Below, in pieces: positions 1 through 35,338 of a stretch of 35,338 nucleotides of DNA. How positions within the stretch are numbered: the stretch's first letter is position 1; each line of letters opens with the position of its first letter. The notes below the pieces were generated by a model that did not search any database, was not told where the DNA came from, and was given only the letters and a program-made list of their open reading frames with translations. The stretch is taken from the IMG/VR virus record IMGVR_UViG_3300045988_173503, positions 1 through 35,338 of that record. One strand, 5' to 3'. The translations under genes and the position numbers were made by a program. This DNA comes from a virus.

Positions 1-55
1 GAACCCATGTTACAGCCGTGAAAGGGCCGTGTCTTAACCGCTTGACCAACGGGCC
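1..55. repeat. Terminal direct repeat, copy 1 (equals nt 1-55 of tRNA-Glu on the minus strand)
   Basis: Read base by base, 1..55 is identical to 35284..35338. The copy is cut off by the window edge, so its true extent is unknown. Confidence 0.95.
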
Positions 56-82
56 GGAATTCCCGACCTGTTGGCCGGAAAA

Positions 83-159
83 TGGTAGCGGAGATTGGAC
101 TTGAACCCATGACCTACCGGGTATGAACCGGTTGCTCTAGCCAGCTGAGCTACTCCGCC
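83..159 (-). tRNA. tRNA-Met (anticodon CAU), 77 nt with encoded CCA
   Basis: The reverse complement folds as a cloverleaf: GGCGGAG/TA/GCTC-AGCTGGCTA-GAGC/A/ACCGG-TTCATAC-CCGGT/AGGTC/ATGGG-TTCAAGT-CCAAT/CTCCGCT/A/CCA. The anticodon loop is TTCATAC. By my folding it has a G1-U72 wobble and a G51-A63 mismatch. I cannot tell elongator Met from lysidine-modified Ile2 by eye. Confidence 0.85.
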
Positions 160-203
160 ATATTCACTCGGACCTTTTGAGTCTCACTCACGAGTGCTTA
201 AAT

Positions 204-232
204 ATTATACCACAAACGAAAGCGTTTGTCAA
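204..232 (-). promoter_or_regulatory. Consensus sigma-A promoter of the tRNA-Met/tRNA-Glu operon
   Basis: The minus strand reads TTGACA (227..232), a 17-nt spacer, then TGgTATAAT (-10 at 204..209, with an extended -10 TG). It sits about 40 nt upstream of the tRNA-Met 5' end. Confidence 0.75.
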
Positions 233-325
233 GGGGTTAGAGCAAAGTTTTTTGTTTTTTTTCGGAATTGTCAGGGATGTACTGAAAACCGGCGGCTGGC
301 GGGCGAAGTTCGTCTGTTTTTGCGC

Positions 326-354
326 TTGAAAAGAGCGCCGGGAAGTGGTATCAT
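326..354 (+). promoter_or_regulatory. Sigma-A-type promoter facing the accessory/early region
   Basis: TTGAAA (326..331), a 17-nt spacer, then TGgTATCAT (-10 at 349..354) with an extended -10 TG. A non-coding leader of about 200 nt follows. Confidence 0.6.
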
Positions 355-562
355 ATATATGTCGATAAATTCAGAATACGCGCCGGACGGAAAACCGCTC
401 GGACGACGTATTATATCGCACAGAGTAGACCATGACGCGTGAAGTGTCCGGCGGACGGGGAGTTGTCGCCGGAACGAAAGAATCCTAAGGATTACTGCGG
501 TGTCAGGGTCGCATCCCGCTGTCGCATACCCGGAGAATTTCCTTAACGGATAACTTCCTTAT

Positions 563-733
563 ATGCTGCCTGTCGGAATGCTGCATATCAAGGTCAAGCG
601 ACTCGAAGAGCGCATGAGCAAGATCGAAGATCCCGCTTTTACCTATTATAACGGTAATATAGGTTCTTGGCAGGAGCTTGCGCGCATTACCGACAAAAGC
701 CCGGCGGTCGATAACCGCCGGACACAGATTTAG
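563..733 (+). CDS. Small hypothetical protein (56 aa; alternative ATG at 578), paralog of 1982..2161
   Basis: This ORF is below the 60-aa cutoff of the ORF track and I translated it by hand: MLPVGMLHIKVKRLEERMSKIEDPAFTYYNGNIGSWQELARITDKSPAVDNRRTQI. The C-terminal two thirds align without gaps to the 1982..2161 product. No clear RBS is visible. Confidence 0.5.
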   Translation: MLPVGMLHIKVKRLEERMSKIEDPAFTYYNGNIGSWQELARITDKSPAVDNRRTQI

Positions 734-780
734 TCTTTCAAGAAGTCTATAATGCACTTTCTCATGTCAAGGAGGTAAGA

Positions 781-969
781 TTGATTAGCTTTGGTGAAGC
801 GCGAATCGTGTTATTGACAATAGCGGTGTCAGCAATTACATCTTCGGTGTGCGCATGGCTCGTCACAAAAAATCAATGCACATATTTTCTTCGCACGGTT
901 GACAAATATGTAGATTGGACTATGGAACGAATTATAGAAATTGTAAGAGGAGGTAGAAAAAATGGATAA
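781..969 (+). CDS. Small membrane protein (62 aa, one predicted TM helix)
   Basis: TTG start, 5 nt after AAGGAGG. Hydrophobic stretch ARIVLLTIAVSAITSSVCAWLV. No recognisable family. Confidence 0.55.
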   Translation: MISFGEARIVLLTIAVSAITSSVCAWLVTKNQCTYFLRTVDKYVDWTMERIIEIVRGGRKNG

Positions 970-1117
970 TCATGAAAAAGAAGTCCTTCGCAAGCAGCTT
1001 GACCTGCTTGCCGAAAAGTCGGTTGTGATCGCCCATCTTGCCGGGCATGAAAGCGATCTTCTAGCATACACGAACATAATGTGCGAGATCGTAAAGCTTC
1101 TCCAGTGGGAATCATAA
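962..1117 (+). CDS. Small hypothetical protein (51 aa)
   Basis: Hand-translated ORF below the track cutoff: MDNHEKEVLRKQLDLLAEKSVVIAHLAGHESDLLAYTNIMCEIVKLLQWES. A GAGGAGG RBS precedes it. Its stop overlaps the next start (TAATG). Confidence 0.5.
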   Translation: MDNHEKEVLRKQLDLLAEKSVVIAHLAGHESDLLAYTNIMCEIVKLLQWES

Positions 1118-1326
1118 TGAACCAGATAGACCAGCACATCGAAGCACAGCTCAAAGCCGCATGGCAAGCAATCTTCGAAGGCAAGAACCAATCGCAGATT
1201 CCCGAAGACAAGCCGTTTGGTCATGACAATCGCTTTCCGGACGAGCCGCACAATCCATGGCACATCCTGATCGGATTCGTCGCCGGGATTGTTGTCGCGG
1301 TAGCCGCGCGGCTGATATTCCAATAA
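1117..1326 (+). CDS. Small membrane protein (69 aa, C-terminal TM helix)
   Basis: Internal ATG of track ORF 1081..1326, coupled to the upstream stop. C-terminal hydrophobic segment ILIGFVAGIVVAVAARLIF. Confidence 0.5.
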   Translation: MNQIDQHIEAQLKAAWQAIFEGKNQSQIPEDKPFGHDNRFPDEPHNPWHILIGFVAGIVVAVAARLIFQ

Positions 1327-1341
1327 AAAGGAGGTGAACCC

Positions 1342-1548
1342 ATGTACGCTATCTTATTACTGTTGATCGCGGCAGGAACGGCGGGATTACCTGCGCCATA
1401 TCTCGTGGCACTGTGCGTAATCTCCGCCGTCTGGCTGATCGGGCGTGAAGTAGATCGAAAACGAGCCCTCAAGTCCCTTCCGTCAGCATTTTCGAAGGCA
1501 CTGCTGGAAGTGATAGAGAAACTTGAAGAGAACGCCTCGAATAAGTGA
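1342..1548 (+). CDS. Small membrane protein (68 aa, two N-terminal TM helices)
   Basis: AGGAGGTG RBS 6 nt upstream of the ATG. Hydrophobic N-terminal half, charged C-terminal tail. Confidence 0.6.
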   Translation: MYAILLLLIAAGTAGLPAPYLVALCVISAVWLIGREVDRKRALKSLPSAFSKALLEVIEKLEENASNK

Positions 1549-1550
1549 CT

Positions 1551-1895
1551 TTACTGCGGAATCCTAGGTAATGCGTCTTGAATCGTTGATGCAAGGTTTA
1601 TTACCGCCGGAGTCACTTCAGCTATAGTCTTCAAGCGGTTGCAGATGTAAGTAATCTTACCGACCGACAAAAAGCCTTCGCCGATGATCTTAGTGATCTC
1701 GGGCGGCAATTTGTTCTCGCCGTCGCAGTAGCATTTCAGCCTTTCATATACCTGCGGCGGCAGCGGCTCGTTCTCGGAATAGACTTTCTTAAGGAGTTCG
1801 AGCTTTTCGAGAGCGAGATCGCACCACTTGAAGTACTGTAGCTCTTCCCAAGTGAAATTTGATGTGTCAGCCCACGTCATAAGAGAATCTTTCAC
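1551..1895 (-). CDS. Hypothetical protein (114 aa), cassette gene 1
   Basis: GTG start preceded by the conserved leader GGAGGTGATTAT and the cassette promoter. No recognisable family. Confidence 0.65.
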   Translation of the reverse strand: MKDSLMTWADTSNFTWEELQYFKWCDLALEKLELLKKVYSENEPLPPQVYERLKCYCDGENKLPPEITKIIGEGFLSVGKITYICNRLKTIAEVTPAVINLASTIQDALPRIPQ

Positions 1896-1981
1896 ATAAT
1901 CACCTCCTCTCCGAGATGATTATACCACAAAAACAAACAAAAATCAAGACGGATTTCCAAAACATTGAAGGAGGTGAGAGA
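1896..1981 (-). promoter_or_regulatory. Promoter-leader cassette, copy 1
   Basis: The minus strand reads TTGATT (1942..1947), a 17-nt spacer, TGgTATAAT (-10 at 1919..1924), then GGAGGTGATTAT-GTG. The plus-strand end carries GAAGGAGGTGAGAGA-ATG for the divergent gene. About 95% identical to copy 2 by hand alignment. Confidence 0.75.
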
Positions 1982-2161
1982 ATGAAGAAAAGCGAGCGAA
2001 TCAAATTGCTTGAAGAAAAGGTCAAGCGGCTCGAACGTCGCGTGAGCGAGATAGAAGACCCTACTTGTACCTACTATAACGGAATTATACGTTCATGGCA
2101 GGAACTTGCGCGCATTACTGATAAAAGCCCGGCGGTCGATAACCGCCGGACACGGAATTAG
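1982..2161 (+). CDS. Small hypothetical coiled-coil protein (59 aa)
   Basis: ATG 6 nt after GGAGGTG: MKKSERIKLLEEKVKRLERRVSEIEDPTCTYYNGIIRSWQELARITDKSPAVDNRRTRN. Paralog of 563..733. The 3' end contains a GC hairpin at 2129..2149. Confidence 0.6.
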   Translation: MKKSERIKLLEEKVKRLERRVSEIEDPTCTYYNGIIRSWQELARITDKSPAVDNRRTRN

Positions 2162-2349
2162 TCTCTCAAGTAATCGATAATGCACTTTCTCATATCATTG
2201 AGTGCATAGACCATCAATCTTGAAAGCTGTGCCATGTCTGCTTCGCAGACTGGGGTTGTACTGCCCTCAGGAAATGTTTCCTGAGCGTGCAGTGCAAACT
2301 CGTTGATAGCCGCATTGAGCTTATTGTTAAGCAAATTAATGTTTTTCAC
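2158..2349 (-). CDS. Hypothetical protein (63 aa), cassette gene 2
   Basis: GTG start behind GGAGGTGATTAT and the copy-2 promoter. Its stop codon overlaps the stop of 1982..2161. Confidence 0.6.
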   Translation of the reverse strand: MKNINLLNNKLNAAINEFALHAQETFPEGSTTPVCEADMAQLSRLMVYALNDMRKCIIDYLRD

Positions 2350-2436
2350 ATAATCACCTCCTCTCCGAGATGATTATATCACAAAAACGAACAAAAATCA
2401 AGACGGATTTCAAAAACTATTGAAGGAGGTGAGAGA
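2350..2436 (-). promoter_or_regulatory. Promoter-leader cassette, copy 2
   Basis: The minus strand reads TTGATT (2396..2401), a 17-nt spacer, TGaTATAAT (-10 at 2373..2378), then GGAGGTGATTAT-GTG. Confidence 0.75.
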
Positions 2437-2652
2437 ATGAAGAAAAAGCCAATAAAGCGTGATTTCTATAAGGAAGGCGCACTGAATGGCGCACGTGCCA
2501 AGAAACAGCAGGAAGTCCGAAAGCTCGCAAAAGAGATCGTTGTTCTTATCGGCGAAAAACATAGCCTCACTCACGAGGAAGCAATGGAAGTGCTTGATCG
2601 GAGCAAGGCTATGCTTAACTACTTCTGCGAGCTTCGACTCGACAGAAGTTAG
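2437..2652 (+). CDS. Hypothetical basic protein (71 aa)
   Basis: ATG after GAAGGAGGTGAGAGA. No recognisable family. Confidence 0.6.
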   Translation: MKKKPIKRDFYKEGALNGARAKKQQEVRKLAKEIVVLIGEKHSLTHEEAMEVLDRSKAMLNYFCELRLDRS

Positions 2653-2841
2653 TTAATTCTGCGAGCCGAAGTCAATGGGGTGGGCGTCGTCGTAAGCATC
2701 AAGAGCAGATTTAGCTCTATCGCGCAACTGGCAGTATCGCGTAGCAAATCCATCAATACTGCCCGCCCCCTTTTCCGTCGCACTAATGCGCAGATACTCA
2801 ATTGCGAGTTCATGCGCTATAGTCTCGTTGTTCGGTTTCAT
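2653..2841 (-). CDS. Hypothetical protein (62 aa), cassette gene 3
   Basis: ATG behind GGAGGTGATTAT and the copy-3 promoter. Its stop abuts the stop of 2437..2652 with no gap. Confidence 0.6.
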   Translation of the reverse strand: MKPNNETIAHELAIEYLRISATEKGAGSIDGFATRYCQLRDRAKSALDAYDDAHPIDFGSQN

Positions 2842-2927
2842 ATAATCACCTCCTCTCTGAGATGATTATACCATAAAATGGACGAAATGTCAAGAATCGT
2901 TCCATGAAAGGAAAGGAGGTGAGAGGG
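2842..2927 (-). promoter_or_regulatory. Promoter-leader cassette, copy 3
   Basis: The minus strand reads TTGACA (2888..2893), a 17-nt spacer, TGgTATAAT (-10 at 2865..2870), then GGAGGTGATTAT-ATG. Confidence 0.75.
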
Positions 2928-3161
2928 ATGAACGAGGTTGCGACAGTAAATCACATTCCAGAAAATCCGAGAGAGCGGTTTCTCCGAAATGTGATGGAAA
3001 TGAATAGTCAAAGCACGGCTTCTTTGATAAAACTCAAAAAGTCCCGGAAACTCGGTATCCGGCTTATACTGTCTGATCAGTTTTCGGCGGATGCGACCGA
3101 TTCCGAAAGATGCTGTAAAAGGTTCGTCAAGCGATTAAAGTCGTTGACCAGTTCGATGTAA
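2928..3161 (+). CDS. Hypothetical protein (77 aa)
   Basis: ATG after GGAAAGGAGGTGAGAGGG. The last 85 nt overlap the convergent gene 3077..3442, so the true 3' extent and the coding status of the tail are uncertain. Confidence 0.45.
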   Translation: MNEVATVNHIPENPRERFLRNVMEMNSQSTASLIKLKKSRKLGIRLILSDQFSADATDSERCCKRFVKRLKSLTSSM

Positions 3162-3442
3162 TCGCTGTTGTCTTGATCGACGTCATGCAGTTCACACATA
3201 TTTATGTTGTGCGAATAAAAGCGGCGCGAATAATTCAGAGCAAACAGTATAGCCGTCCAATCCGATTTGTCTATGATATCGGCATTTTTAGAGTGCATTC
3301 GGTCACGGAACTGTTTCAGATGAGCAAGTTTTTTTGCAACTTTAGGTTGGCTCGTTCCTGATTTGTTGTCAACTATGGTCAGGGTTATGGCTTTATAGAG
3401 TGCTTGGGTATCTTCGGCACTCAAATTCAGATTCACGTTCAT
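3077..3442 (-). CDS. Hypothetical protein (121 aa), cassette gene 4
   Basis: Internal ATG of track ORF 3077..3523, directly behind GGAGGTGATTAT and the copy-4 promoter (MNVNLNLSAEDTQALYK...). No recognisable family. Confidence 0.65.
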   Translation of the reverse strand: MNVNLNLSAEDTQALYKAITLTIVDNKSGTSQPKVAKKLAHLKQFRDRMHSKNADIIDKSDWTAILFALNYSRRFYSHNINMCELHDVDQDNSDYIELVNDFNRLTNLLQHLSESVASAEN

Positions 3443-3503
3443 ATAATCACCTCCCTTCGAGTTGATTATACCACAAAAATAAACGAATGTCAAGGAGACC
3501 ACC
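3443..3503 (-). promoter_or_regulatory. Promoter-leader cassette, copy 4 (shorter)
   Basis: The minus strand reads TTGACA (3488..3493), a 17-nt spacer, TGgTATAAT (-10 at 3465..3470), then GGGAGGTGATTAT-ATG. It borders the first gene of the long plus-strand operon. Confidence 0.75.
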
Positions 3504-3782
3504 ATGAAAGCAGAAGAAATCAAAACCGACCTCGGAAATTTCGTCCGGGTAAAATGCGGGGTCGTCTGCTACAGGGACCCGGACGGGACGCCGAACGGAA
3601 AGGTTGTGGATCTTTACCGGGAGATACCGGAGAAGGCATACGACCCTGAGCGAGGGCTCACGACCGACGAGAAGAACGCCGCGAACTACGCCGCCGACTA
3701 TATCTTCGCGAAACTGCTCGAGGAAAACGGCGGCATGGCGGATTACATACGCCGCTTCGGCGGCAAACGCAGTAGAAAATAA
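3504..3782 (+). CDS. Hypothetical protein (92 aa), first gene of the early operon
   Basis: GGAG RBS and a clean ORF. No recognisable family. Confidence 0.6.
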   Translation: MKAEEIKTDLGNFVRVKCGVVCYRDPDGTPNGKVVDLYREIPEKAYDPERGLTTDEKNAANYAADYIFAKLLEENGGMADYIRRFGGKRSRK

Positions 3783-3795
3783 GGAGGAAAACACA

Positions 3796-3954
3796 ATGGA
3801 CAACAGACAGAAAGTAAACGCGATTCTTCGTGACGAGGCTTTTTCTAAGCTCTCCAAGATAGAGCGCAGGCTCGTCGCAAGCTATATCGAGGGCGTAATC
3901 GCCTGTGCGGAGCTTCGCGAACAGAAGCCCGAGAAGGAGGACAAGCCGGCATGA
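3796..3954 (+). CDS. Small hypothetical protein (52 aa)
   Basis: Internal ATG of track ORF 3604..3954, preceded by AAGGAGG. Its stop overlaps the next start (ATGA). Confidence 0.5.
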   Translation: MDNRQKVNAILRDEAFSKLSKIERRLVASYIEGVIACAELREQKPEKEDKPA

Positions 3955-4160
3955 AGCAGACAAAGTTCAAAGCCCTGCTCGCGGAGCGGAACATCAGTAT
4001 AAGCCGCCTCGCGAAGGACGCCGGAATCAGCCGGGCGATGCTTTATCGGAAGATCGAGGGCGTCTGCGACTTCACCTACACCGAAATCTACAAGATCTGC
4101 ATGACGCTCGGACTTTCCGATCCGCTCGCGGTATTCATCCCAAAGGAGAAAAGAAAATGA
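3951..4160 (+). CDS. XRE/Cro-like helix-turn-helix DNA-binding protein (69 aa)
   Basis: HTH-like segment NISISRLAKDAGISRAMLYRKIEG. Small size and early-operon position fit a Cro-type regulator. Confidence 0.6.
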   Translation: MKQTKFKALLAERNISISRLAKDAGISRAMLYRKIEGVCDFTYTEIYKICMTLGLSDPLAVFIPKEKRK

Positions 4161-4483
4161 ACAAGAGAATCAAAAAAAAACACTTCGTCCGCTTCGCGGA
4201 AGCCGTCATGTTTTATCGCGAAGAGGGGCTCGAATGGTGCTCATACCAGAAAGCGAAGCCGGTCGGCGGTAAAGCCGCGAAAAAATGCTGGCAGTACGCT
4301 CTCGAGTGCGGACACGAAAACGCGCTCGACGAAAAGCCGATCTTTCGACCGGAGCGGAAATACGTCTTCGCCGTCACGCAGACAGACGACTTCCGGCGTC
4401 TCGTCGAGCCGATCCGGGTAACCCCGATCGACGCCGACAAGCCCGCGCACAGAGACACGCCGCGTCCGACACGGAACAGATAA
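4157..4483 (+). CDS. Hypothetical protein (108 aa)
   Basis: ATG within track ORF 3905..4483, after AAGGAGAA. The ATGA overlaps the upstream stop. Confidence 0.55.
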   Translation: MNKRIKKKHFVRFAEAVMFYREEGLEWCSYQKAKPVGGKAAKKCWQYALECGHENALDEKPIFRPERKYVFAVTQTDDFRRLVEPIRVTPIDADKPAHRDTPRPTRNR

Positions 4484-4754: not shown

Positions 4755-4829
4755 GCGTCCGGGCAGTACACCACTACCACCCGGACGCAAAGGAGATCTC
4801 CTCTGACAAGGACACCATATACAGTATAT
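4755..4829 (+). promoter_or_regulatory. Intergenic regulatory region with three palindromes and a weak promoter-like element
   Basis: 8-bp GC stem CGTCCGGG/CCCGGACG (4755..4786). 12-bp palindrome AGGAGATCTCCT (4790..4801). CTGACA (4802..4807), 16 nt, then TATATC (4824..4829), overlapping the 13-nt palindrome ATATACAGTATAT (4816..4828). Confidence 0.35.
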
Positions 4830-4879
4830 CACAAATCAATGGCAAAGTCAACAGCCTGAAAATAAAAAGTGAGGACAAC

Positions 4880-19171: not shown

Positions 19172-19459
19172 ATGGTCAGCATGATCACCGCGGCTGAACT
19201 GCTCGATTATGTCCGTGAGGATAACCCCGACGAGGTGGCGGTCGGGCAGATCGAGCAGATGAAAAAAGCCGCTGTCGGCTACATAATGGCGTACACCGGG
19301 CAGAGCGCGGAATATCTCGACGAACACGACGAGTTTGACGCTGTTCTGATGGTACTCGTCGCCGATATGTACGACAACCGTTCGCTGATAGTCGACAGCG
19401 ACAAGCAGAATCCGTTCGTCGTGTCGGTGCTTGATATGCACAGGGTGAATCTGATATGA
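19172..19459 (+). CDS. Head-tail connector protein (gp6-like)
   Basis: 95 aa, immediately after the capsid gene. The N-terminus ITAAELLDYVRED... is typical of gp6-like connectors. Confidence 0.65.
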   Translation: MVSMITAAELLDYVREDNPDEVAVGQIEQMKKAAVGYIMAYTGQSAEYLDEHDEFDAVLMVLVADMYDNRSLIVDSDKQNPFVVSVLDMHRVNLI

Positions 19460-19803
19460 TTAAATCCATGTCAACAAGGCTCAGAAACCGTGTCGAGGTC
19501 TGGGGGCGGAAAACCGCCCTCAACACTCTCGGTGAGACGGACGGAGAGGAGCAGAAACTCGCGGCGCTGTGGTGTGATATTGTCCCGAAGTCCGGACGCG
19601 CCGAGCAGATCGGAGACGTCCCGGCGGCAATATACGAAAGCATAACGCATGAGGTGACATTCAGAAGATCTGCCGCCAAGCAGTTAAACGAGAAATATCA
19701 TCTCAGGATCGGTGACGAACGGCTCGAGATACAGTATATCATGCCGCATTACAACGAGCCGGATAAGATCGTCGCTTATTGCCGGGAGGTCAACAATTTG
19801 TGA
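19456..19803 (+). CDS. Head closure / head-tail adaptor protein
   Basis: 115 aa. ATGA overlap with the upstream gene. Sequence LRNRVEVWGRK... resembles head-closure proteins. Confidence 0.6.
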   Translation: MIKSMSTRLRNRVEVWGRKTALNTLGETDGEEQKLAALWCDIVPKSGRAEQIGDVPAAIYESITHEVTFRRSAAKQLNEKYHLRIGDERLEIQYIMPHYNEPDKIVAYCREVNNL

Positions 19804-34597: not shown

Positions 34598-34626
34598 TTG
34601 ACAATAGGTTAAACCTATGATATAAT
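34598..34626 (+). promoter_or_regulatory. Perfect consensus sigma-A promoter
   Basis: TTGACA (34598..34603), a 17-nt spacer, then TGaTATAAT (-10 at 34621..34626). Confidence 0.8.
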
Positions 34627-34631
34627 ATATA

Positions 34632-34651
34632 TGTGATCAAGAGAGATCACA
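34632..34651 (+). promoter_or_regulatory. Inverted repeat just downstream of the -10 (candidate operator or 5' stem-loop)
   Basis: TGTGATC-aagaga-GATCACA, 7-bp arms, starting 6 nt after the -10 hexamer. Confidence 0.5.
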
Positions 34652-34682
34652 ATACCGGGGCAAGACGAGAGAGGAGGTCAGA

Positions 34683-34808
34683 ATGGAAGAAGGCATGACA
34701 GATTTTCAATTCAAAAAGCTTCTTGAGATGATACTTATGATTCTCGAAGGCAGCGAGACCAAGGAAGAAGCAATCGAAAAAATAAAAGCTCTGATCGACA
34801 ATAAGTAA
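34683..34808 (+). CDS. 41-aa hypothetical micro-protein
   Basis: Hand-translated (below the track cutoff): MEEGMTDFQFKKLLEMILMILEGSETKEEAIEKIKALIDNK. GAGAGGAGG RBS 6 nt upstream. Predicted helical, no signal peptide. Confidence 0.6.
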   Translation: MEEGMTDFQFKKLLEMILMILEGSETKEEAIEKIKALIDNK

Positions 34809-34889
34809 TCAGAGCTTCCAAACCAAAAACGACTTGGGCGGAACTTGCCGCCGCCCTCATCGTTTATATTATATCACGTTTTGCCCCGA

Positions 34890-35090
34890 ATGTCAAGAGA
34901 GGACGTGATTTTTATCGGCGAGAAAAAAACAACTCCGCAGGAGAAGTACGACAAGGAGAACACACGCTTCATCGGACTCAAACTCAACAAGAAGACCGAC
35001 AAGGATATTCTCGACGCACTTGAGGGACTGCCGATGCAGACTGAGATCAAGCGGCTTATTCGGATCGGCATTGAAAATAGCAAGAAGTAG
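34890..35090 (+). CDS. Small basic protein, possibly ribbon-helix-helix-like (66 aa from the ATG; start uncertain)
   Basis: In-frame start candidates: TTG 34845, ATG 34890, GTG 34905. Segment KYDKENTRFIGLKLNKKTDKDILDALEGLPMQTEIKRLIRIGI resembles small plasmid/phage RHH-type proteins I recall. No good RBS. Confidence 0.45.
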   Translation: MSREDVIFIGEKKTTPQEKYDKENTRFIGLKLNKKTDKDILDALEGLPMQTEIKRLIRIGIENSKK

Positions 35091-35263: not shown

Positions 35264-35338
35264 TGGTGACCCGTACGGGAATCGAACCCATGTTACAGCC
35301 GTGAAAGGGCCGTGTCTTAACCGCTTGACCAACGGGCC
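35264..35338 (-). tRNA. tRNA-Glu (anticodon UUC), 75 nt with encoded CCA
   Basis: Reverse complement: GGCCCGT/TG/GTC-AAGCGGTTAA-GAC/A/CGGCC-CTTTCAC-GGCTG/TAAC/ATGGG-TTCGATT-CCCGT/ACGGGTC/A/CCA. Closely resembles Firmicutes tRNA-Glu as I remember it. Confidence 0.9.
35284..35338. repeat. Terminal direct repeat, copy 2
   Basis: Identical to 1..55. Confidence 0.95.

Follow-up and report, generated by a model that had tools for sequence, protein, structure and literature searches.

Promoter-early stem-loops (PeSLs) of T4-type phages are short motifs, repeated in hyperplastic regions, in which a consensus host-type promoter is combined with a stem-loop; they cluster there beside small orphan genes, and the breakpoints of insertions, deletions and replacements between close relatives fall in the motif (Arbiol et al. 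2010, PMC2839356; Comeau et al. 2014, PMC4122927). In the T4 genes I-TevI, segB and mobE, a hairpin buries the ribosome-binding site of RNA started upstream, and a promoter lies in the 5' arm of that hairpin (PMC2988022, section 12). This promoter-in-hairpin control has been demonstrated by experiment for I-TevI; for a number of other T-even endonuclease genes it has been either shown or predicted (PMC2988022). The PeSL traits just listed, together with a palindrome that has a promoter element in its 5' arm, recur in an array of four control cassettes in the IMG/VR virus record IMGVR_UViG_3300045988_173503, of which positions 1-35,338 were analysed (35,338 nucleotides (nt), the whole stretch being called the window). 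The array is likely a hyperplastic set of accessory genes built from reusable control cassettes of 60-87 bp, a reading that takes in both the anatomy of the cassettes and the shuffling of the units by recombination. Cassette-mediated gene shuffling, so far a matter of T4-type phages of Gram-negative hosts, would thereby be extended to small gut-Firmicute phages related to temperate phages.

The repeated cassette

Sequence reading, repeat finder, promoter scan and pattern search agree on the four cassettes that an earlier note on this DNA had picked out by eye (Table 1). The pattern TATAATCAWCTC-N4-6-GGAGGTGATTAT has four minus-strand matches in the window (1896-1924, 2350-2378, 2842-2870 and 3443-3470), against none expected; 0 of 100 dinucleotide-preserving shuffles matched it. 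Every cassette consists of a -35 box TTGAYW, a 17-nt spacer, a TG before the -10 box, a short leader, GGAGGTGATTAT and a start codon, the minus-strand open reading frame (ORF) beginning 0 nt after the leader. The sequence matches the host sigma-70-type consensus promoter: copies 3 and 4 agree with TTGACA/TATAAT at 12/12 positions and copies 1 and 2 at 10/12 (TTGATT), and the promoter scan found the spacer and the extended -10 in all four, as the earlier note had it. The identity of copies 1 and 2, put there at about 95%, was measured by the repeat finder as 96% over 74 nt; between copies 1 and 3 it is 74%. Cassette 4 is a short form, with a leader shorter by one base (CAACTCGAAG) and a -35 box that abuts the ribosome-binding site of the plus-strand ORF at 3504.

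The other side of the cassette faces the plus strand. Cassettes 1-3 carry GGAGGTGAGAG-ATG for the plus-strand ORFs P59, P71 and P77, the ribosome-binding site in cassette 1 lying at about 1969-1979. A plus-strand promoter within the cassettes was considered and rejected: the best candidate of the promoter scan, TTCACA-18-GATGAT, scores 9/12. The cassettes thus give the plus strand a ribosome-binding site and no visible promoter above 9/12, in keeping with the earlier description; the first plus-strand ORF does stand behind cassette 1, with its start at 1982 and not 1981. A full-text literature search for the motif strings returned nothing relevant.

A palindrome over the ribosome-binding site

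The -10 box and the six bases after it (CAWCTC) read ATAATCAYCTC, which is the inverted complement of GGAGGTGATTAT, the ribosome-binding site and its spacer. The sense RNA is predicted to form a hairpin of 12-13 paired positions that includes both the ribosome-binding site and the start codon. Its fold ranges from -12.6 to -16.7 kcal/mol (z -4.3 to -7.7), and no shuffle equalled it. The values are -14.4 kcal/mol (z -5.5) for cassette 1, -16.7 (z -7.0) for cassette 2, -16.0 (z -5.0) for cassette 3 and -12.6 (z -4.3) for cassette 4. The antisense cassette RNA folds at just -8 to -9 kcal/mol because the G-U pair turns into an A-C mismatch. This palindrome is the only stem-loop of the window cassettes, and no U-tract follows it. 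Since the -10 hexamer lies inside the 5' arm, RNA from the cassette's own promoter cannot form the hairpin; read-through RNA alone can. The geometry of the proximal promoter, from which the start site is placed, is such that its transcripts would miss the 5' arm.

A motif-neutral scan of IMG/VR was made with TGNTATAAT-N10-GGAGGTGAT-N3-ATG, leaving the six bases after the -10 box free. Among the matches listed, a 6-mer that pairs fully with GAGGTG stands in these positions in 11 of 41 distinct contexts of a conservative subset and in 29 of 67 when pooled, where 0.3-0.5 are expected; CATCTC, CACCTT and CATTTC are among the pairing 6-mers. The non-Watson-Crick positions of the pooled sample, again among the matches listed, are G-U in 84 cases and A-C in 9, an excess that favours selection on RNA pairing. 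In the plus-strand RNA of cassettes 1-3, pairing is predicted between UCACCUCCU, which is complementary to the minus ribosome-binding site, and the site that serves the plus ORF (z -2.8 for 1885-1995, -3.7 for 2339-2450 and -1.9 for 2831-2941), and lytic read-through transcripts may therefore translate the plus ORFs poorly.

These features suggest how a unit could work. On the minus side the cassette would offer the host housekeeping sigma factor a near-consensus promoter (TTGAYW, 17-nt spacer, TGnTATAAT) and, about 23 nt beyond it, a ribosome-binding site with the full 16S rRNA complement, followed by the start codon; with its own promoter and a strong ribosome-binding site, the cargo would be expressed independently of the lytic cascade. 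In RNA entering from upstream the hairpin would hide the ribosome-binding site and start codon, and RNA from the cassette's own promoter would start within the 5' arm and remain translatable. Read-through RNA being silenced and self-started RNA free, each unit would be insulated from its neighbours, a role for the hairpin that we consider plausible and hold with some doubt. Units 2 and 3 would stop at intrinsic terminators inside the convergent plus genes. On the plus side the cassette would give a ribosome-binding site alone, the plus ORFs being part of an early lytic operon and relying on a distant promoter: the cro-side promoter in temperate relatives, and here either the promoter before the riboswitch (Table 1) or the one at 34598-34626. 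The cassettes are the sole sequence common to otherwise unrelated units; recombination at them would insert, delete or swap the cargo, as happens with PeSLs in T4-type phages. The cargo products are small orphan proteins, most of them acidic.

Turnover and breakpoints among relatives

The array was compared with 23 related loci, designated by L numbers, which were recovered by pattern scans and one protein look-up: seven IMG/VR contigs, seven metagenome contigs, eight contigs with a homologue of the cargo protein A121 and one contig of a Clostridiales metagenome-assembled genome. The window and these loci together hold 45 cassette-driven ORFs, which fall into 12 BLAST families; a 13th cargo of 111 amino acids (aa) in L124 stands behind a more divergent cassette copy. 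Beyond the families of the window, the cargo includes DUF6173, DUF2513, a YozE/SAM-like protein, two membrane proteins and further orphans. Arrays consist of one to four units, and their order varies between loci.

Cassettes and cargo are reassorted. The cassette variant TTGATTTTTGTT...CATCTCGGAGAGGAGGTGATTAT heads four cargo families (D114, C63, the 63-aa J family and B65), and a fifth, F124, stands behind a copy of that variant which differs in the last leader base alone; conversely, A121 occurs behind five cassette variants. Units are present or absent between otherwise collinear relatives, and the breakpoints of insertions, deletions and replacements between close relatives are found at cassettes. 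Phages that share 90-96% identity with the window to the right of 3438 lose all similarity at the cassette edge: L020 and L078 are 91-96% identical to the window rightward from 3438 and unrelated leftward, and L124 behaves likewise from 3442. L075 is 97-98% identical to the window apart from a replacement between 1981 and 2423. L124 and L121 match the cassettes alone between unrelated flanks (1893-1980 at 94-96%; 2839-2932 at 94%), and L122 has one additional unit inserted between two cassette copies.

The earlier note had likened the region to T4-type hyperplastic arrays and had named conservation as one fixed block, with no turnover in relatives, as the observation that would speak against this. 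The 23 loci differ in content and order and break at cassette edges; the hyperplastic, PeSL-like reading is therefore supported. Among the points that go beyond that note are the palindrome that can bury its own ribosome-binding site, the place of the plus ORFs in an early lytic operon, the co-orientation with lysogeny genes described below, and the doubtful status of P77.

The cargo and its convergent partners

The four minus-strand cargo ORFs of the window, D114, C63, B62 and A121, belong to four separate BLAST families, which agrees with the claim that each cassette drives a different ORF. All eight small proteins were searched against Pfam, PHROGs, PADLOC and NCBIfam without a match at E <= 0.01, and PADLOC gave no toxin-antitoxin or defence family among them. 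AlphaFold2 models of A121 and D114 are confident and helical, with a predicted local distance difference test (pLDDT) score of 84 and 80; in Foldseek searches of the PDB nothing better than E = 0.1 was found for A121 or better than E = 1 for D114. An exhaustive HMMER search left B62 essentially alone, with weak, uninformative matches to the TPR repeats of long proteins. The profile-library and structure searches being empty, the ORFs are the orphans they had been taken for. Homologues of the small proteins are confined to a narrow group of metagenomic phage contigs, and a BLAST search of window positions 1-4200 against cultured phages returned a tRNA match only.

The small ORFs show purifying selection or conservation at the protein level, and the substitution patterns indicate that they are coding. 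The ratio of nonsynonymous to synonymous substitution (dN/dS) is 0.07-0.09 for A121 and 0.32 for E71, a cargo of relatives. The homologues of B62, C63 and P71 entered the substitution analysis at 30-47% aa identity, where synonymous sites are saturated. On the plus strand, P59 has a dN/dS of 0.20-0.29 against four homologues, including the copy in L001 at 44% aa identity, and paralogues of P71 at 34-47% aa identity are found in L075, L076, L121 and L124; P71 itself has two protein clusters. At least these two plus-strand ORFs are, judged from their conservation, real genes. P77 is predicted by gene callers, and its first ~25 codons are conserved along with cassette 3 in L124; its dN/dS is 0.58. 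P77 and the P66 ORF of relatives are doubtful because their dN/dS values span 0.58-0.70 and 85-100 nt of each lie over the 3' end of a minus gene.

Terminators link the two strands. The intrinsic terminator of unit 2 lies within P59 (a second copy is found at 699-723), and two hairpins that follow the B62 stop lie within P71; the second of these (2614..2559) has UUUUU directly after it and would be the end of unit 3. In 5/5 loci that have C63, this gene converges with a P59-type plus ORF, and B62 is paired with a P71-type gene in 5/6 loci; C63 travels with P59, and B62 usually with P71, because the terminator of the minus gene lies within the plus gene. A direct repeat of 185 nt (590-774 and 2018-2202, 85% identical) spans most of P59, the embedded terminator and the last ~40 nt of C63. 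Its first copy is the remnant of a deletion relative to L076; a truncated P59 paralogue lies at 563-733. In the window the minus proteins are acidic and their three plus partners basic; as a general rule this was discarded, since it fails in relatives.

Lysogeny context

In temperate relatives the lysogeny module is on the same strand as the cassette genes. It comprises an integrase of the serine or tyrosine type, a cI-like XRE repressor and ImmA, in some cases also SIR2 or RNase T genes. In the array, the plus ORFs come after a Cro-like gene with a consensus promoter, and the cassette units sit between the immunity switch and the replication genes. Co-orientation with the lysogeny genes, with plus ORFs after cro, is seen in L216-L223, L075, L124 and L076. 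Given the shared strand and the plus ORFs after cro, the cassette units are antisense insertions in the early lytic operon; with its low GC content, the array has a moron-like profile. Since the cargo genes are co-oriented with integrase and repressor in relatives, they are probably moron-like, expressed from the prophage and at once on infection. Exclusion, defence or host modulation are guesses as to their role.

In L216 (6697-9115) and L221 (2981-5778), SIR2_2, RNase_T and DUF6414 genes are found between ImmA and the integrase. This region is a likely prophage defence hotspot.

Wider distribution

The exact cassette motif is found in at least 119 IMG/VR stretches, and its design recurs in other low-GC phage contigs (26-49% GC). 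The records of cultured phages include 31 Streptococcus prophages with the motif, from at least eight species. It lies on the minus strand in every Streptococcus record listed, which is the integrase strand in Javan511, the one annotation examined. The streptococcal copies usually follow a terminator hairpin directly, giving a PeSL-like terminator/promoter composite. In L225 (Streptococcus phage Javan511, MK448788.1), positions 3781-4021 hold a cassette and, driven by it, a 70-aa minus ORF (MNKDFNNFAQ...) that is antisense in the early region; it is unannotated in GenBank, where an overlapping plus ORF is annotated in its place. Megablast matches among streptococcal prophages break at the Javan511 cassette.

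The cassette might on these grounds belong to a widespread, so far undescribed class of palindromic promoter/ribosome-binding-site elements of Firmicute phages, which would confine the translation of small accessory genes to their own transcripts and serve as portable recombination junctions. This is a tentative generalization that we regard as rather doubtful. Its scope would take in this Clostridia-type gut phage as well as streptococcal prophages from at least eight species. If true, the convergent plus/minus pairs would be expressed in opposite phases of the life cycle, and phages would exchange lysogeny-oriented accessory genes placed antisense within the early lytic operon.

Alternative explanations

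Several other explanations of the array are less well supported than its shuffling by way of the cassettes. The palindrome ATAATCAYCTC-N4-5-GGAGGTGATTAT could be a DNA operator for a dimeric phage or host regulator, the four units forming a co-repressed regulon much like the repeated repressor sites of mycobacteriophages, and the cassette would then be conserved through protein binding and not through RNA folding or recombination. Its 11-12 bp arms reach from the -10 box to about +20, where a repressor would be ideally placed; a gene for a Cro-like helix-turn-helix protein is found a little downstream (3951-4160), and no cassette of the family lacks the palindrome. However, most imperfections are of the G-U type and are seen on the sense strand only (the 84 to 9 ratio given above), as expected for RNA pairing and not for a symmetric DNA site; the same arms recur in streptococcal prophages and in the low-GC contigs alongside unrelated repressors; and the arm sequence is dictated by the 16S rRNA complement. 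The cI/cro switch operators of L216, GTGAATC-N-GATTCAC, differ from the palindrome in both sequence and geometry, for which reason a cI/Cro operator was dropped; an operator of any kind seems unlikely. It is likewise improbable that antisense transcription is the main product, the head-on minus promoters forming a transcriptional-interference barrier that damps leaky lytic transcription in lysogens or times early expression, with the ORFs as secondary passengers. All units do run against the lytic operon, in the stretch that separates the cro-side promoter from the replication genes; the plus ORFs lack their own promoters, minus-strand terminators lie within plus genes, and further short antisense promoter-terminator units are found at 34896..34820 and 4851..4755. 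Against this, the minus ORFs are under purifying selection (A121 with the dN/dS of 0.07-0.09 given above) and have maximal ribosome-binding sites, and a barrier needs no cargo turnover; both functions could coexist.

The pairing of the two strands raises another question, whether each convergent plus/minus pair is a two-gene module, such as a prophage-expressed effector with an early lytic antidote or a toxin-antitoxin-like pair, with the cassette as a mere separator. The constancy of the C63 and P59-type pair, which extends to L001 at 30-44% aa identity, and the near-constancy of B62 with the P71-type would fit, as would stop codons that overlap or abut and the acidic and basic partners of the window. 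The charge split fails across relatives, however, and pairing is not obligate: P71-type genes are also found with DUF2513 cargo, B64 of L001 is found with a P51-type gene, and P59 occurs alone. With partners that vary between loci, an obligate toxin-antitoxin-like pairing was rejected; the linkage is explained more simply by the terminator inside the plus gene, the PADLOC search points to no such family, and two-gene modules are quite improbable. Ordinary local tandem duplication followed by divergence, leaving a repeat without special mobility or function, would account for the near-identity of copies 1 and 2 and for the 185-nt repeat. It is very improbable, since the four cargo ORFs are unrelated, the same cargo stands behind different cassette variants, and relatives contradict it with replacement, insertion and reordering of units whose breakpoints lie at cassette edges.

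Several observations weigh against the shuffling-array reading itself or limit it. Start sites, promoter activity and read-through are all deduced from the DNA. The hairpin is impossible in self-initiated RNA, so that its role rests on presumed read-through, and each arm is under a constraint of its own, the -10 box in one case and the ribosome-binding site in the other; with both functionally fixed, two-sided covariation was not obtainable. Cassette 4 of the window has an A-G mismatch, and extra A-C mismatches occur in the variants of L216-L223 (GGAGGCGATTAT) and L122 (CAACCC). The wider sample of phage contexts consists of the matches listed and is not phylogenetically independent. A convincing terminator is missing for units 1 and 4, unit 1 having none and unit 4 a weak candidate. 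At least one rearrangement, the junction at 769-774 relative to L076, lies outside any cassette, and therefore not all events use cassettes. Finally, the window has no lysogeny module, and expression from a prophage is therefore inapplicable to this genome.

Genome setting and neighbouring features

Window positions 1-55 and 35284-35338 carry the same 55 nt, which makes the contig a circular assembly and the genome about 35.28 kb (35,283 bp) long. Its plus-strand genes include PcfJ, SSB, the large terminase, baseplate J and a GH25 lysin. The array has a GC content of 45-49%, compared with 52-59% for the remaining genome, and thus differs in composition from its flanks. All 12/12 promoters of the genome found by the promoter scan fall in a zone that runs from 34.6 kb through the circular junction to 3.5 kb, and the 10/12 promoters with TG fall there too except for 4851..4823 (minus) and 19431-19460 (plus). 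What looks like a partial tRNA at 1-55 is part of the tRNA-Glu of 35264-35338, and tRNA-Glu and tRNA-Met form a single minus-strand operon. The fifth related promoter, which the earlier note had placed before the tRNAs, is indeed there, 45 nt upstream of tRNA-Met (159..83); it matches at 12/12 with TG and is 81% identical to cassette copy 4 over 31 nt.

Table 1. Positions of the array and of neighbouring elements in the window.
Feature	Position	Strand	Remarks
Promoter of the tRNA operon	204..232	-	consensus, cassette-related; without leader and palindrome
Promoter TTGAAA-17-TATCAT	326-354	+	with TG; promoter scan
Tetrahydrofolate (THF) riboswitch aptamer, RF01831	419-523	+	intact; 80.8 bits against a gathering score of 36
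Cargo D114, 114 aa	1551..1895	-	acidic, helical orphan; 8 protein clusters, all metagenomic
Cassette 1	1896..1981	-	-35 1947..1942; -10 1924..1919 after TG; palindrome and leader 1924..1896
P59, 59 aa	1982..2161	+	basic; real gene; terminator of C63 lies inside
Intrinsic terminator of unit 2	2127..2151	-	inside P59; 11-bp stem, 8 GC pairs, then TTTTAT
Cargo C63, 63 aa	2158..2349	-	homologues in L076 (78% aa identity), L001 (30%), L222, L223
Cassette 2	2350..2436	-	-35 2401..2396; -10 2378..2373; 96% identical to cassette 1
P71, 71 aa	2437..2652	+	basic; real gene; holds terminator hairpins of B62
Two stable hairpins after B62 stop	2555..2656	-	both inside P71; fold -51.1 kcal/mol, z -8.4
Cargo B62, 62 aa	2653..2841	-	divergent homologues in L075, L076, L219, L221, L001
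Cassette 3	2842..2927	-	-35 TTGACA 2893..2888; -10 2870..2865; 12/12 with TG
P77, 77 aa	2928..3161	+	doubtful; 85-nt overlap with 3' end of A121
Weak terminator-like hairpin and U-rich stretch after A121 stop	3026..3062	-	read from sequence; z -1.1
Cargo A121, 121 aa	3077..3442	-	helical-bundle orphan; 4 protein clusters
Cassette 4, short form	3443..3503	-	-35 3493..3488; -10 3470..3465
First gene of conserved early lytic block, 92 aa	3504..3782	+	ribosome-binding site abuts cassette 4

Two strong plus-direction promoters lie upstream of the array, the nearer one before the THF riboswitch and the other at 34598-34626. After the riboswitch there is no obvious terminator or ribosome-binding-site platform, and the next ORF is the truncated P59 copy. 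The riboswitch was found in 0/18 related loci scanned, and a scan of IMG/VR for the aptamer with exact and degenerate patterns found nothing. Relative to L075, the window segment from 35272 to 590 is swapped for the tRNA operon, the nearer plus-strand promoter and the riboswitch, in the place where close relatives have their integrase/repressor module; no integrase is found in the window. A metabolite-sensing leader where a phage immunity switch is expected would be unusual. At the right end of the array, the gene that follows cassette 4 is conserved in L002, L020, L078, L122 and L124.

Two further short antisense units lie outside the array. At 34896..34820 (minus) and 34598-34806 (plus), two perfect consensus promoters face each other; the minus promoter is followed within ~15-55 nt by a GC hairpin and a T-run, and a short antisense RNA is predicted that would cover the 3' end of a 41-aa plus ORF (34684-34806). 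At 4851..4755 (minus), a 10/12 promoter with TG is followed after ~35 nt by a strong terminator-like hairpin (14 pairs, 9 of them GC), forming another such unit within the early plus operon. In relatives, Twister-P5 ribozymes (53-61 bits) are found on the early lytic strand of L216 (2914-2971), L222 (1335-1392), L223 (325-382) and L076 (7315-7372); in the window no Twister-P5 match reached the gathering score.

Significance

The cassette suggests a compact design rule, in which the -10 box doubles as the arm that pairs with the ribosome-binding site, and this could explain how accessory genes are insulated and still exchangeable. The motif is also a sequence handle for fast-evolving accessory genes, candidates for exclusion, defence or counter-defence, which annotation pipelines can miss, as the 70-aa gene of Javan511 illustrates. 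The cassette could further serve as a minimal strong expression part for Firmicutes.

Comparison with known systems

Beyond the traits shared with PeSLs, several differences are apparent. The present phage, 35 kb long and with a Firmicute host, is related to temperate phages and is no T4-like myovirus. Its stem-loop is a palindrome of -10 box and ribosome-binding site and not a GC-rich terminator upstream of the promoter; no such terminating stem-loop is found in the window cassettes, whose terminators are separate and lie inside plus ORFs. The units here are also antisense to the lytic-strand genes and interleaved with them. The streptococcal prophage version, with terminator, T-run, TGnTATAAT and leader in succession, is closer to the PeSL layout. 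PeSLs are also characterized by mini-circles, which arise when neighbouring motifs recombine. Because the position and nature of the stem-loop and the phage group differ, the array is not a strict member of the PeSL class. As in the T4 hairpin control, a stable hairpin covers the ribosome-binding site, the promoter is in the 5' arm, and proximal transcripts would lack the inhibitory arm. The proximal promoter in T4 is a late or middle one and the effect temporal, whereas here it is of the housekeeping type with an extended -10, the elements are arrayed, and their effect is deduced from the layout.

Morons of lambdoid and other temperate phages are said to have been described by Juhala et al. 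and Hendrix et al., both in 2000. A classical moron is inserted singly, usually in the orientation of the late operon, and has no promoter cassette in common with others. The window units resemble them in having their own promoter in all four cases and, in units 2 and 3, a clear terminator (weak in 4 and lacking in 1), as well as in their presence or absence among relatives, their different base composition and their probable expression from a prophage. They differ in that a single cassette is common to a whole array, which runs antisense within the early operon. The integron cassette array was considered and set aside: there is no intI/attC layout, the units carry their own promoters, and the palindrome is upstream and not downstream of the gene.

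The SAS and ESAS (start-associated and extended start-associated sequences) of Cluster K mycobacteriophages resemble the cassette as short conserved motifs that overlap the ribosome-binding site and recur before a subset of genes, some copies having an inverted repeat; the stoperators of Cluster A are repressor-binding sites. Neither is a -35/-10 promoter, and we know of no case in which they bound gene turnover. The host-takeover module of SPO1, attributed to Stewart et al. (in 1998), is reportedly a region of a Firmicute phage packed with small genes whose sigma-A promoters are numerous and very strong and whose ribosome-binding sites are stronger than usual. The array shares with it small genes under strong sigma-A-type promoters and strong ribosome-binding sites in a Firmicute phage. 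SPO1 is large and virulent, however, and no single repeated palindromic cassette is known to underlie its units; to our knowledge neither interleaving with opposite-strand genes nor cassette-bounded turnover has been described for its module.

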